From sequence record MZ311862.1: 39,586 nucleotides of DNA, one strand, 5' to 3'. Made by a program: the position numbers and the translations under genes. Under the pieces are notes generated by a model. That model had not been told where the DNA came from and did not search any database. It saw nothing but the letters and a program-made list of their open reading frames with translations. The stretch comes from Escherichia phage vB_EcoP_LNA3. Shown here one piece after another: positions 19,240-29,383 of the stretch (within the stretch, counting starts at the first letter, position 1; each line of letters begins with the position of its first letter).

Positions 19240-21921
19240 ATGAGCGTCATCTCTATTGATAAACACGACTTCTCTGATGTGTCGAACGCCATTGAGCCGT
19301 TTAACCTGCTGGCAGACCACTACGGGCAAGACCTTGCAGTCAAACAGCTTCAGCTTGAGCATGAGGCCTACACAGAAGGCGAGCGACGTTTCATCAAGAA
19401 CCTTGAGCGCCAGACCGAGCGCGGGGAACTGGCAGACAATCAGGTCGCCAAGCCTTTGATGCAGACTCTGGTGCCTAAGATTGCGCAAGCAGTCAAGGAG
19501 TGGCACGAAGGCCAAGACGGGAAGCTGTCAACCTCTCGTCCTAGCGTAGCGTTCACCAAGTTGAGCACTGAAGAGAAGGCCGTCAAGGACCGCTCTATGC
19601 GCATCTCCTGTGAGTCCGCTGCGGTTATCATACTGAAGGTCATACTCTCCAAGCTGGTCAAGCCTGAAGGGATACCGATTACACCTATGGCCTCAGCGTT
19701 AGGTCGCACACTTGAGGACGAAATCCGCTTCGGTCGCATCCGTGACAAGGAGAAGGAGCACTTCAAGAAGGCGATAGCTGAGAACCTGAACAAGCGAGCT
19801 GGGGCATCCTACAAGAAAGCCTACATGCAAGCTGTAGAGGCATCCATGCTGGAGCAAGGCCAACTGGAAGATGCGTGGGGGACTTGGAGTCCGACCGAAG
19901 CGGTACACGTTGGCATCAAGATGCTCGAGATTGTCATCCAGTCCACACAACTGGTCGAGCTTAAGCGTTATGGTGCTGGCAATGCGGCGGCTGACGTTGA
20001 GATGGTCCACCTGTCAGACTTCTGGGTAAAGAAGATGGCACAACGTGGATTCAGCCTTGCGGGTATTGCGCCAGTCTATCAGCCTTGCGTCGTTCCACCT
20101 AAACCGTGGACTGGTGTAGTAGGCGGTGGGTACTGGGCCAAAGGTCGCAGACCGTTACCATTGATTCGCTTAGGGTCTAAGTCTGCGGTAGCACGTTATG
20201 AAGACGTGTACATGCCTGAAGTCTATGACGCTGTGAACATCATTCAAAATACACCTTGGAAAGTGAACAAGAAGGTATTGAACGTGGTGAACATGGTCGA
20301 GAAGCTGAACAACACGCCTATTGATGACATCCCTCAGATGGAACCGCTGAAGCCTGAGGACTATGCTGGTGAGACCGAGGAGGAACTCAAGGCATGGAAG
20401 AAGGCTGCTGCTGGTATCTATCGCCGCGAGAAGGCCCGACAGTCACGCAGATTATCACTGAGCTTTATCATCAACCAAGCGAATAAGTTCTCTCAGTTCA
20501 AGGCCATCTGGTTTCCATACAACATGGACTGGCGCGGTCGAGTCTACGCTGTGCCGATGTTCAACCCTCAGGGTAACGACATACAGAAGGGTCTCCTGAC
20601 TCTGGCAGTCGGTAAGCCTATTGGTGCTGACGGTTTCAAATGGCTGAAGGTCCATGGTGCAAACTGCGCGGGTGTTGATAAAGTCACCTTCGAGGAGCGC
20701 ATCAAGTGGGTGGAAGACAACCACGAAAACATCATGGCTGCTGCTAAGGCACCGATGGATAGTATTGAGTGGTGGGGCAAGTTAGACTCTCCGTTCTGCT
20801 TCCTTGCGTTCTGCTTCGAGTATGCTGGTGTAATGCACCACGGATTGTCTTACTCCTGCTCACTGCCGATAGCGTTCGATGGGTCATGCTCTGGTATTCA
20901 GCACTTCAGTGCGATGCTTCGTGACCACATCGGTGGACATGCAGTAAACCTGACGCCATCCGGCATGGTACAAGACATCTACCGCATTGTGTCTGACCGC
21001 ATTGAGGAGGAGCTTAAAGTCCTGCTGATTACCGGTACTGACAACGAGATGGTCACTCACGAGGATAAGAAAACTGGTGAGATTACCGAACGTATCAAGC
21101 TGGGGACACGAGAGCTGGCCCGTCAGTGGTTGACATACGGTATGTCACGCAAGGTCACTAAGCGTTCAGTCATGACTCTGGCATACGGGTCGAAAGAGTA
21201 CGGCTTCGCTGACCAAGTTTACGAGGACATCGTGATGCCAGCGATTGACTCAGGATCTGGCGCTATGTTCACCGAGCCGAGCCAAGCGTCTCGCTTCATG
21301 GCTAAGATGATTTGGGAAGCTGTGAGTGTGACCGTAGTTGCTGCGGTTGACGCGATGAAGTGGCTTCAAGGTGCTGCCAAGCTGCTGGCTGCTGAGGTGA
21401 AGGACAAGAAGACTGGAGAAATCCTGAAGCCTTGCCTTCCGGTACACTGGGTCACTCCTGATGGTTTCCCGGTCTGGCAGGAATACCGCAAGAAGGATAC
21501 CACTCGTCTGAACCTGATGTTCTTAGGGTCATTCAACCTTCAGCCTACCGTCAACAGAGGTACGAAGAAAGAGCTGGACAAACACAAGCAGGAGTCAGGC
21601 ATTAGCCCGAACTTCGTCCACTCACAAGATGGTAGCCACCTCCGCAAGACTGTAGTCCATACTCACCGCAAGTATGGCGTGATGTCGTTCGCAGTGATTC
21701 ACGATAGCTTCGGGACCATCCCGGCTGACGCTGAGTATCTGTTCCGTGGGGTCCGTGAGACTATGGTCGAGACCTACCGCGACAACGATGTGCTGCTTGA
21801 CTTCTACGAGCAGTTTGAATACCAGCTTCACGAGAGCCAGCGCGATAAGTTGCCAGAGCTTCCGAAGAAAGGTAAACTGAATATTGAGGACATCTTGTCT
21901 TCAGACTTTGCATTCGCTTAA
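19240..21921 (+). CDS. T7-like single-subunit DNA-dependent RNA polymerase (gp1)
   Basis: 893 aa, collinear with T7 RNAP (DFSDV...PFN.LADHYG...; C-terminal ...DILSSDFAFA). Specificity loop at 21541..21600 reads QPTVNRGTKKELDKHKQESG. Confidence 0.97.
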   Translation: MSVISIDKHDFSDVSNAIEPFNLLADHYGQDLAVKQLQLEHEAYTEGERRFIKNLERQTERGELADNQVAKPLMQTLVPKIAQAVKEWHEGQDGKLSTSRPSVAFTKLSTEEKAVKDRSMRISCESAAVIILKVILSKLVKPEGIPITPMASALGRTLEDEIRFGRIRDKEKEHFKKAIAENLNKRAGASYKKAYMQAVEASMLEQGQLEDAWGTWSPTEAVHVGIKMLEIVIQSTQLVELKRYGAGNAAADVEMVHLSDFWVKKMAQRGFSLAGIAPVYQPCVVPPKPWTGVVGGGYWAKGRRPLPLIRLGSKSAVARYEDVYMPEVYDAVNIIQNTPWKVNKKVLNVVNMVEKLNNTPIDDIPQMEPLKPEDYAGETEEELKAWKKAAAGIYRREKARQSRRLSLSFIINQANKFSQFKAIWFPYNMDWRGRVYAVPMFNPQGNDIQKGLLTLAVGKPIGADGFKWLKVHGANCAGVDKVTFEERIKWVEDNHENIMAAAKAPMDSIEWWGKLDSPFCFLAFCFEYAGVMHHGLSYSCSLPIAFDGSCSGIQHFSAMLRDHIGGHAVNLTPSGMVQDIYRIVSDRIEEELKVLLITGTDNEMVTHEDKKTGEITERIKLGTRELARQWLTYGMSRKVTKRSVMTLAYGSKEYGFADQVYEDIVMPAIDSGSGAMFTEPSQASRFMAKMIWEAVSVTVVAAVDAMKWLQGAAKLLAAEVKDKKTGEILKPCLPVHWVTPDGFPVWQEYRKKDTTRLNLMFLGSFNLQPTVNRGTKKELDKHKQESGISPNFVHSQDGSHLRKTVVHTHRKYGVMSFAVIHDSFGTIPADAEYLFRGVRETMVETYRDNDVLLDFYEQFEYQLHESQRDKLPELPKKGKLNIEDILSSDFAFA

Positions 21922-25059: not shown

Positions 25060-25074
25060 ACTATCACTGTAGGA
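25057..25074 (+). promoter_or_regulatory. phage RNA polymerase promoter (phi2.5 position; variant, G at -2)
   Basis: TAAACTATCACTGTAGGA upstream of the SSB gene. Confidence 0.6.
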
Positions 25075-25115: not shown

Positions 25116-25829
25116 ATGGCTAAAGAGCAACTGAAGACTTTCACCACTCCGGTAGCTGGTATAGTTGAGCCTTACGCATGGCTGAACAAAGCAGACACCA
25201 AGTTTAATGAGCGTGGTGAGCATAAGGTTAACCTGACATTCGACCTGAGCAACCCGAAGGTCCGTAAGATGATTGATGTCTTACAGAAGATTCACGACGA
25301 TGCGTATGCGAAAGCACTCGCAGACCACGAGAAGAACCCACCTCAGGTTCAGCGTGGCAAGAAGCCTATCGAGCCGCGTGAAGGCGACATGCCGTGGATT
25401 GAGAATGGTGACGGCACTGTTACCCTTAAGTTTAAATGCTTTGCGTCTTACCTTAAAGACGGCAAGTCCGAGCCTATCGTATTACGGTTCTACGACACCG
25501 ATGCTAAGTTAATCCGTGACGTCCCGAATATTGGCGCTGGCTCAAAGCTGAAGGTCAAGTTTAAAGTCCTGCCATTCAAGTGGAACGCTGCTACTGGTGC
25601 AAGCGTTAAGCTCCAGCTTGAGTCCTGCCTTCTGGTAGAACTGAAGGAGTGGAAAGGTGATGGTGCTGGTGGCGATGGTGGCTGGGGTGATGATGAAGAC
25701 CTCGGTACTGGTTACAAAGCGTCAACCGATGGTGACTTCGGTGACGATGACTTCGGTGACGATGACTTCGGTGACGATGGTTCCGAAGGTGGTGACGACT
25801 CCAGCTCTGGTGGAGATTACGACTTCTAA
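25116..25829 (+). CDS. single-stranded DNA-binding protein (gp2.5)
   Basis: 237 aa with an acidic C-terminal tail ending in Phe (...GGDYDF), as in T7 gp2.5. Confidence 0.9.
   Translation: MAKEQLKTFTTPVAGIVEPYAWLNKADTKFNERGEHKVNLTFDLSNPKVRKMIDVLQKIHDDAYAKALADHEKNPPQVQRGKKPIEPREGDMPWIENGDGTVTLKFKCFASYLKDGKSEPIVLRFYDTDAKLIRDVPNIGAGSKLKVKFKVLPFKWNAATGASVKLQLESCLLVELKEWKGDGAGGDGGWGDDEDLGTGYKASTDGDFGDDDFGDDDFGDDGSEGGDDSSSGGDYDF
25734..25778 (+). repeat. three in-frame tandem copies of a 15-bp unit (GACTTCGGTGACGAT) within the SSB acidic tail
   Basis: Perfect tandem copies encoding the tripled DFGDD motif in the gp2.5 C-terminal tail. Confidence 0.9.
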
Positions 25830-26281
25830 TGGCCCAATGGTCTGCAAAACGGGGGCACTCTGTGGGTGCCTACCGCTCTGGACTTGAAGCCAAGAACCAG
25901 CAGTGGCTGGAACAGAACGGCGTCAAAGCGGAGTACGAAAGCCATTATATCAACTATGTGATTCCGGCTTCCGACCACAAGTACACACCAGACTTTATCC
26001 TTCCAAACGGTATCATCGTGGAGACCAAAGGAATCTTCGCAGTTGAAGACCGTAAGAAGCACCTTCTGGTACGAGAACAGCACCCAGAGTTAGACATCCG
26101 GTTCGTGTTCTCGAGTTCCCGCTCCAAGTTATACAAAGGGTCTCCGACCACGTATGGCGCATGGTGCGAAAAGAACGGCTTTAAATTTGCCGATAAATTC
26201 ATCCCGGTTGAGTGGCTGCGAGAGGCGACTGTACGTCTGCCTTCAGGTATACTCATCCCCAAGAAGAAAGGAGTTAAGTGA
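25829..26281 (+). CDS. endonuclease I (Holliday junction resolvase, gp3)
   Basis: 150 aa; YVIPASDHKYTPDFILPNGIIVETKG...RKKHLLVREQHPELDIRFVFSSSRSKLYKGSPTTYG closely matches T7 endonuclease I. Confidence 0.92.
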   Translation: MAQWSAKRGHSVGAYRSGLEAKNQQWLEQNGVKAEYESHYINYVIPASDHKYTPDFILPNGIIVETKGIFAVEDRKKHLLVREQHPELDIRFVFSSSRSKLYKGSPTTYGAWCEKNGFKFADKFIPVEWLREATVRLPSGILIPKKKGVK

Positions 26282-26736
26282 TGACTACCTGTAAAGACCT
26301 TGAAGTTGGAACACGTTACAGATTCTCAAAGAACACCCTGTTGAATAACCCCAGCTTCACTGATGCTGTTTTCGAAAAGCGAGAAGACCATAGCGTAATT
26401 GTGGAGAAGGGGTGGCATCCTGAGGATTATATCGGTGAGACTACCAGCTGGAATGGTCACGAGACCTACAGTGTAGAAGTTGTTGACCAGCCTCAAGTCC
26501 TGCCAGCTTCGAGCGTACCTCCTGTGACTGTGAAGCGTGAAGTCCTGACAATCGACAAGATTGGTGTAGGCCAGACGTTCATCGTCCATGGAAAGCCTGA
26601 AGAAGTTTACGTGAAGATTAGCAACTCACACGTCTTCAACCATAAGCGTCTCCAGATGCACACCACGGACGCACAACGCTTCACCCAGCACCTGAATCTA
26701 GTGGTCGTAGAATTGGTGGTGTACAATGGTAAGTAA
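26281..26736 (+). CDS. hypothetical protein between endonuclease I and lysozyme
   Basis: 151 aa from ATG 26281 (AAGAAAGGAG upstream; TGATG overlap with the gp3 stop). T7 has no gene here. Confidence 0.6.
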   Translation: MTTCKDLEVGTRYRFSKNTLLNNPSFTDAVFEKREDHSVIVEKGWHPEDYIGETTSWNGHETYSVEVVDQPQVLPASSVPPVTVKREVLTIDKIGVGQTFIVHGKPEEVYVKISNSHVFNHKRLQMHTTDAQRFTQHLNLVVVELVVYNGK

Positions 26737-27424: not shown

Positions 27425-27440
27425 ACTATCACCTTAGGGA
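27422..27440 (+). promoter_or_regulatory. degenerate phage-promoter-like sequence (phi3.8/phi4 position)
   Basis: TAAACTATCACCTTAGGGA differs from the consensus at -4 and -3; function uncertain. Confidence 0.35.
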
Positions 27441-27492
27441 TGGGACCATGAGTCCTGTCCCTTTGTTCGCATTTGTGACTAAGGAGTGACCG

Positions 27493-27672
27493 ATGGTTAC
27501 AGTTATTCTAGTTCTAACGCTTATCAGTGGTAGTGGGCAAACTATCAGCCAAGTACCTATAACAGCACCAACATTACAGGACGCATTCACAATATGTGAC
27601 CAGTCCGGCTCAAAGTGGGCCGACAAGTTTGGCGATGTCTCAAACGTTGCAGCAGGGTATGAGTGTATTTAA
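27493..27672 (+). CDS. small putative secreted or membrane protein (hypothetical)
   Basis: 59 aa (MVTVILVLTLISGSGQ...) with AAGGAG 6 nt upstream; bracketed by 12-bp direct repeats TAAGGAGTGACC at 27480 and 27670; below the ORF-track cutoff. Confidence 0.45.
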   Translation: MVTVILVLTLISGSGQTISQVPITAPTLQDAFTICDQSGSKWADKFGDVSNVAAGYECI

Positions 27673-27679
27673 GGAGTGA

Positions 27680-29383
<1,704 letters not shown>

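Follow-up and report, generated by a model that had tools for sequence, protein, structure and literature searches.

Gene 3.2 of Escherichia phage vB_EcoP_LNA3 (record MZ311862.1) is a 151-amino-acid open reading frame (ORF) situated between the genes for endonuclease I (gene 3) and lysozyme (gene 3.5). Its product, gp3.2, is very probably modular, with a constant C-terminal half and an N-terminal part that is exchanged between phages. The features of the locus are given below with their coordinates in the window, by which is meant the whole stretch of 39,586 nucleotides that was analysed.

26281-26736, plus strand: gene 3.2, whole ORF, 151 amino acids plus stop (ATG 26281-26283, TAA 26734-26736)
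26267-26273, plus strand: Shine-Dalgarno sequence AAAGGAG for gp3.2, 7 nucleotides 5' of the ATG and within the end of gene 3
26281-26490, plus strand: N-terminal module of the TCKDL type, very probably exchangeable, amino acids 1-70; predicted SH3-like beta-barrel, isoelectric point (pI) 4.8
26491-26526, plus strand: Pro-rich linker PQVLPASSVPPV, amino acids 71-82; nucleotide identity returns here, at the cassette's 3' boundary
26527-26733, plus strand: constant C-terminal domain, amino acids 83-151 (stand-alone forms correspond to amino acids ~78-151); pI 9.5
25829-26281, plus strand: gene 3, endonuclease I, 150 amino acids, so named in the identical locus of phage Pipis
26726-27184, plus strand: gene 3.5, N-acetylmuramoyl-L-alanine amidase/lysozyme, 152 amino acids
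26715-26719, plus strand: GGTGG, a Shine-Dalgarno-like element for gene 3.5, within the last codons of gp3.2

ATG 26281 is the annotated start of the identical gene in Pipis, with AAAGGAG as its annotated ribosome-binding site; a mechanical list of ORFs also offers GTG 26278, one codon earlier (152 amino acids). The stop codon of gene 3 (TGA, 26279-26281) shares one nucleotide with the ATG of gene 3.2 (TGATG), and the ATG of gene 3.5 at 26726 gives an overlap of 11 nucleotides. An earlier sequence-only reading of the window had described a 151-amino-acid ORF at 26281-26736 with a good Shine-Dalgarno sequence and both of these overlaps, and in each respect it was correct. In the SH3/Dev2 phages the ribosome-binding element of gene 3.5 likewise lies inside the end of gp3.2, as tabulated in PMC4925675. 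Judged from these signals, gene 3.2 is predicted to be translated as a class II (middle) gene, in coupling with the gene for endonuclease I on one side and that for amidase/lysozyme on the other.

The extra gene is the standard, long-annotated gene 3.2 of the genus Kayfunavirus, which GenBank has listed as K1F gene 3.2 for some two decades. Hypothetical proteins of Escherichia phages Vec13, Pipis and PhiNW-B1 match its product with 100% identity, and 'gp3.2 protein' is the label used in the K1F record AM084414 and, as gp3.2, in EcoDS1. The Kayfunavirus proteins of this name (K1F CAJ29361/YP_338104, EcoDS1, Dev2 and CR44b gene 3.01; PHROG 16385 and 15211) belong to the same family, occupy the same position between genes 3 and 3.5 and share the C-terminal domain. 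Those of K1F and EcoDS1 differ from gp3.2 of the window in carrying a non-homologous N-module of the GWP type, whereas the gp3.2 of Cronobacter phage Dev2 and Citrobacter phage SH3, at 74 amino acids (PMC4925675), has no N-module. The two K1F records, NC_007456 (L026) and AM084414 (L040), differ in the length given for gp3.2 (156 versus 157 amino acids) and in the gene 3.5 overlap.

About 254 homologues of gp3.2 were found in a collection of 5.8 billion proteins. Exhaustive searching of 1.84 billion cluster representatives with phmmer gave 14 clusters, 12 of them gp3.2 relatives and the two weakest (P0131 and P0132) multi-stretch matches to much longer proteins; so few clusters indicate a narrow family. 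A gp3.2 match is present in 220 phage records, and gp3-gp3.5 DNA at least 80% identical to that of the window in 221, indicating that at least the C-terminal part of gp3.2 is essentially universal in Kayfunavirus. Approximately 1,045 remoter Studiervirinae records match gp3 and gp3.5 only, with spans too short to fit gene 3.2. The position between genes 3 and 3.5 with overlapping start and stop was found in the window, Pipis, ASO2B, Bas105, K1F and the most divergent members of the family, the two most divergent of all (47% identity; 62% over the C-domain) still lying between Phage_endo_I and Amidase_2 with the 11-nucleotide overlap kept.

In T7, T3 and KP32 gene 3 adjoins gene 3.5 with nothing between them, as the sequence-only reading had stated for T7, and gene 3.2 is thus extra relative to T7. 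The description of an extra inserted gene stands in comparison with these three phages; it does not stand as a peculiarity of this genome, because the gene is standard throughout the genus. Universal presence with a known annotation, which had been named as a reason to give up the idea, is found within the genus only, and the annotation carries no function. Gene 3.2 is a real coding gene and not a chance ORF, as is evident from its homologues, its ratio of non-synonymous to synonymous substitution (dN/dS) and the AlphaFold2 confidence score pLDDT (predicted local distance difference test).

The two halves of gp3.2 have quite different histories. In an alignment of 48 diverse homologues amino acids 77-151 are near-invariant and amino acids 1-70 cannot be aligned between groups. 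Phages with other N-types have at least 90% nucleotide identity to the window over gp3, the C-terminal part of gp3.2 and gp3.5, and nucleotide identity drops to 0-50% exactly from the gp3 stop to codon ~71, at the start of the linker. There are at least five N-types, called after their leading motifs TCKDL (the window), GWP (K1F, EcoDS1), KAIIV, YKFPVTV and YRVLN, with further singletons, and the modules are about 65-90 amino acids in size. No profile-profile similarity was detected between N-types or between an N-type and the C-domain (all hhalign probabilities < 5% after linker trimming).

A metagenomic homologue of 226 amino acids (P0123) has a GWP module followed by a TCKDL module in tandem before the C-domain, indicating that N-modules are independent, stackable units. 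Truncated, decayed or frameshifted N-modules occur in P0122, P0044 and P0072. The C-domain is always intact, also where the N-module is truncated or frameshifted, and many phages encode the C-domain alone (74-76 amino acids). The varying unit is not the whole gene; it is the N-terminal ~70 codons. These data argue strongly that in gp3.2 a linker joins a constant C-domain of about 70-74 amino acids to an exchangeable N-module, which recombination has repeatedly replaced. In the literature searched, this modular architecture, the SH3-like fold of an N-type and the relatives of the module elsewhere are undescribed, the gene itself being already known.

Several other readings of the two halves were discarded. 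Homology between N-types, apparent at first pass (hhalign 82-98%), was due to the misclassified truncated sequence P0013 and to residual linker, and fell to < 5% on trimming. The N-module is not a duplicate of the C-domain (hhalign 1.9%, then 0.4% after cleaning); resemblance between the halves is limited to L-x-x-D-x-I-x-V-G-x-x-F, 13-14 columns at the start of each. Nor can the cassette be called foreign by composition, as its guanine-plus-cytosine content (0.465 versus ~0.49-0.52 in the flanks) is not informative.

Selection was assessed from Nei-Gojobori estimates with the window as reference. For the C-domain, dN/dS was 0-0.13 at dS 0.09-0.8 in all pairs with the window, comparable to gp3 and gp3.5 (0.07-0.21), and within GWP-type genomes the ratio of non-synonymous to synonymous differences per site (pN/pS) was 0.00-0.14, pairs with K1F being higher. 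For the TCKDL-type N-module dN/dS was 0.2-0.4 among close relatives, and pN/pS of the GWP-type N-module was 0.26-0.84 within the type. Both halves of gp3.2 appear from these patterns to be translated and constrained, the N-terminal half much less so. Compared with other GWP-type phages, K1F has an unusually large number of non-synonymous changes in the C-domain (pN 0.10-0.19), which could mean either that its allele is genuinely divergent or that the sequencing or the frame differs.

Among distant members of the TCKDL type, synonymous sites of the N-module are saturated (pS 0.77-0.90), whereas the adjacent gp3 of the same genomes has pS 0.10-0.34. In phage CHX131, gp3 differs from that of the window by pN 0.019 and pS 0.105, while its N-module has pS 0.90 and ~57% amino-acid identity. 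Synonymous divergence of the N-module so far above that of gp3 indicates that N-alleles are far older than their flanks, pointing to cassette exchange and not to rapid drift in situ.

AlphaFold2 models residues 1-70 with pLDDT 85-93 as a small beta-barrel with one short helix. The N-module of the window is predicted on this model to be an SH3-like barrel, which is a resemblance of fold class and not membership of a family. Foldseek ranked YorP and FeoA first with E-values that are not significant; a Foldseek search of BFVD returned only the family's own member, and in BFVD and PDB together no significant match emerged other than the family and SH3-like folds. SH3-like barrels such as FeoA, the C-terminal domain of DtxR/IdeR, KapB and Tudor/KOW domains have no sequence relationship to the N-module (7-14% identity), and neither the FeoA profile (PF04023; Pfam searched to E ≤ 10) nor any PDB sequence matched it.

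Relatives of the module were found in other phages. Weak tblastn hits led to a 158-amino-acid hypothetical protein of Klebsiella and E. coli phages of the Melnykvirinae, encoded just upstream of the DNA primase gene (for example, XCG96299 of Klebsiella phage vB_Kpn1-P3, L028 2198-2674, and UZT29425 of KYP), whose last 57 residues match the TCKDL-type profile (hhalign 97.4%, E 9.5e-12). Aeromonas phage BUCT695 (Grimontviridae) has a stand-alone ORF of 69 amino acids (UIW10499, L030 1498-1707) with the N-module motif, and common to the relatives of the TCKDL type is T-x-x-D-[LIV]-x-x-G-x-x-Y-[KR]-F ... W-x-G-H-E. The homologue is thus C-terminal to an unrelated N-terminal region in the Melnykvirinae protein and alone in the Aeromonas phage, whereas in gp3.2 it precedes the C-domain. 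Taken together, these matches suggest that the N-module of the window is a mobile domain. Searching the collection of 5.8 billion proteins with a profile of the N-domain returned the Aeromonas protein only and was uninformative. In the phage collection, gp3.2 was the sole place in which GWP and KAIIV modules turned up. The match of Pectobacterium phage MA13 to the Melnykvirinae protein is confined to the N-terminal ~98 amino acids of that protein, which may therefore be modular too.

N-type is not tied to host: phages of K1-capsule E. coli carry either GWP (K1F) or TCKDL (PhiNW-B1, Pipis). Host genera of TCKDL-type phages are Escherichia, Klebsiella, Enterobacter and Salmonella, and those of GWP-type phages are Escherichia, Citrobacter, Hafnia, Kosakonia, Pectobacterium and Salmonella.

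The C-domain has an invariant core, YVKISNSH..FN..LQMHTT..RF (invariant alignment columns), and its fold was not predicted with confidence, either in the full-length protein (pLDDT < 50 for residues 78-151, 48 sequences) or alone (pLDDT 51, 16 more divergent sequences). Its invariant His and Asn residues, together with HNH genes at neighbouring junctions, raised the idea of a degenerate HNH endonuclease; this was rejected because hhalign gave < 0.2% against the HNH protein of SD6, T7 gp3.8 and T7 gp2.8, and no Pfam HNH family matched.

Searches for a known function were consistently negative. The sequence-only reading had recognised no motif in the ORF, in agreement with the lack of any match to Pfam, NCBIfam or PADLOC profiles even at E ≤ 10; PDB sequences gave nothing significant. 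The sole profile matches were PHROG 16385 (E 3.4e-51) and PHROG 15211 (E 4.9e-40), both without function and covering amino acids 66-151 only. No paper assigning gp3.2 a function was found in the literature searched, and a preprint on a screen of phage accessory genes, with its supplements, does not mention it. Neither Pfam nor PHROG supplied an anti-defence annotation for gp3.2, and none of the PADLOC anti-phage defence families matched at E ≤ 10. In the AntiDefenseFinder paper Ocr is the sole Kayfunavirus entry (PMC11724313). A DNA mimic resembling Ocr or ArdA, acidic throughout, does not fit gp3.2, since the C-domain has a pI of 9.5, the whole protein one of 6.2, and other N-types are neutral to basic. 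The N-module of the window is acidic (net about -6), and, given the neutral or basic modules of other types, acidity is not a general property of N-modules.

A single slot that holds non-homologous alternatives in lytic genomes otherwise nearly identical, and in which loss and decay are tolerated, is typical of host-takeover and counter-defence genes, and such patterns often reveal host-specific or anti-defence functions. From the pattern of the slot and the tolerated loss and decay of N-modules, gp3.2 may be a host-takeover or counter-defence accessory that acts by binding, with a target that differs between host strains; a probability of about 35% seems appropriate for this interpretation. 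Binding is preferred to catalysis because gp3.2 shows no catalytic signature and its only confidently modelled domain is a small barrel of a binding type. The core function would reside in the constant C-domain, which would bind an invariant partner (nucleic acid, or a protein of the phage or the host), and the swappable N-module would add a binding specificity that varies with the strain. An oligomeric C-domain is conceivable and could account for the low confidence of the monomer models.

There are precedents for polymorphic accessory loci in virulent coliphages, namely the gene 0.3 slot of T7 and T3 (Ocr versus S-adenosylmethionine hydrolase) and the internal proteins of T4, in which a constant capsid-targeting leader is fused to a variable anti-restriction body. 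Like the gene 0.3 slot, gene 3.2 has non-homologous alternatives in one syntenic slot of otherwise near-identical genomes. Unlike in either precedent, what is replaced in gp3.2 appears to be an in-frame domain beside a constant half, and an anti-defence role is only proposed for it. A more specific version, in which the constant scaffold, perhaps a core that oligomerises or binds nucleic acid, presents one of a library of non-homologous binding domains, each neutralising a different strain-variable host factor and traded by recombination at a fixed in-frame slot, is correspondingly more doubtful. If it were true, the gp3/gp3.2 junction would be a single-domain 'anti-defence cassette site' and the N-types, at least five in number, a ready set of new inhibitor folds.

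The gene as such is ordinary, and what may be of use is its architecture: one in-frame slot of 210 nucleotides holds at least five unrelated small domains in a block otherwise 90-100% identical, beside a domain that is invariant across the genus. Capsules or O-antigens are the targets of many Kayfunaviruses, K1F among them, and phages of this kind have been explored for therapy and diagnostics. Gene 3.2 offers a compact, testable handle on host-range differences among close Kayfunaviruses beyond the tailspikes, and even if the modules are neutral it is an example of domains being shuffled in frame in a lytic phage.

A number of observations weigh against a host-directed binding role. No partner, phenotype or expression data for gp3.2 were found in the searched literature. 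N-module dN/dS was below 1 in every comparison, so that diversifying selection is not demonstrated, only relaxed constraint and exchange of alleles. As the fold of the C-domain was not predicted with confidence, binding as opposed to catalysis is less certain for that half, and its invariant histidines H103, H117 and H127 could bind metal. Finally, a role tied to gp3 and gp3.5, and not to the host, would account just as well for the strict synteny and coupling with these two proteins.

In gp3, which acts in junction resolution and breakdown of host DNA, and gp3.5, an inhibitor of the T7-type RNA polymerase, gp3.2 has two neighbours that it might regulate. It could be an accessory or regulator of either, kept at a fixed ratio by translational coupling, with the N-module tuning activity. 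Even the most divergent members keep gene 3.2 between Phage_endo_I and Amidase_2, with its start and stop overlapping these neighbours, the ribosome-binding site and start of gene 3.5 lie within the gp3.2 coding sequence, and conservation of the C-domain equals that of gp3 and gp3.5. T7, T3 and KP32, however, run the gp3-gp3.5 pair without gp3.2, and gp3 and gp3.5 are 85-100% conserved while the N-modules are non-homologous, leaving no neighbouring partner that co-varies with them. Coupling of gp3 to gp3.5 is also ancestral, and its preservation may have been no more than a condition of the insertion; regulation of a neighbour is on balance unlikely.

The basic C-domain could instead bind DNA or RNA, making gp3.2 a nucleic-acid-binding accessory of replication or recombination in which an SH3/Tudor/KOW/Sm-like barrel forms a second contact surface, for nucleic acid or protein. 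No nucleic-acid-binding family in Pfam, NCBIfam or PDB sequences matched, though, the N-module of the window is acidic, and free replacement, loss and decay of the N-module are hard to square with a core role in replication, all of which makes this explanation rather improbable.

That gp3.2 is a selfish or neutral passenger, a mobile-element remnant kept as a driver of gene 3.5 translation with N-cassettes as functionless filler shuffled by homing-endonuclease-driven recombination, is highly improbable: HNH endonuclease genes have repeatedly inserted at the gp3/gp3.5 junction and adjacent ones in Studiervirinae, and some N-modules are truncated or frameshifted, but the amino-acid constraint on the C-domain, whose synonymous sites change freely, goes far beyond the needs of a translational spacer, N-module dN is below dS with pLDDT ~90, and the C-domain lacks HNH similarity.

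The HNH homing endonuclease genes of T7 (2.8, 3.8 and 5.3) are, like gene 3.2, small ORFs between genes of DNA metabolism that are absent from sister phages. Unlike them, gp3.2 has no HNH motif or similarity, and it is fixed across the genus and not sporadic. HNH genes were seen at this junction and around it: between gp3.2 and gp3.5 in Escherichia phage SD6 (L033 1446-1817), where the annotation of PH1061 lists one too; in Aeromonas phage KFSA9 and Klebsiella phage vB_Kpl_K35PH164C3 (rows H183 and H187), between gp3 and gp3.5; and between gp2.5 and gp3, as T7 gene 2.8, in viral contig L007 (1894-2343; 149 amino acids, with an HNH_3-like motif VVRHKCDN...NPEHL). Extra DNA in the gp2.5-gp3 gap is also present in L008, L012 and L020. 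The window has none of these HNH insertions.

The window is a complete, circularly permuted Kayfunavirus (K1F-like) genome. It has K1F-type promoters, and its gp3-gp3.5 region is at least 80% identical at the nucleotide level to that of named Kayfunavirus records. Structural and late genes occupy ~1-16 kb of the 1-39586 stretch, with the ORF for the phage RNA polymerase at 19240-21921 and the class II block after it, from ~22 kb. The K1F-type promoter core ACTATCACTATAGG is present in eight exact copies, or 13 sites when near-matches are included (3.7 expected by chance). Two of the near-matches bound the transcription unit of gene 3.2:

25060-25073, plus strand: phage RNA polymerase promoter core (phi2.5 equivalent), 1 mismatch to ACTATCACTATAGG; start of the gene 3.2 transcription unit
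27425-27438, plus strand: next phage-promoter-like site, 2 mismatches, upstream of gene 4; end bound of the transcription unit

With matches at 25060 and 27425 and none between, gp2.5-gp3-gp3.2-gp3.5-gp3.7 would form one class II transcription unit.

Within this unit gp2.5, the single-stranded DNA-binding protein (25116-25829), has an acidic C-terminal tail with a short tandem repeat (DFGDD x3, GACTTCGGTGACGAT units), and is 237 amino acids long in the window versus 232-233 in most loci. Between gp3.7 and the primase-helicase gene a transfer RNA (tRNA)-like or pseudo-tRNA feature is annotated in Enterobacter phage IME278 (L035 2195-2270) and Salmonella phage CHRF_30030 (L036 2210-2285). ARAGORN found no tRNA in the window; the counterpart of the tRNA-like interval, 27425-27682, holds the promoter-like site and an ORF of 59 amino acids, annotated in Pipis as a single-pass membrane protein.

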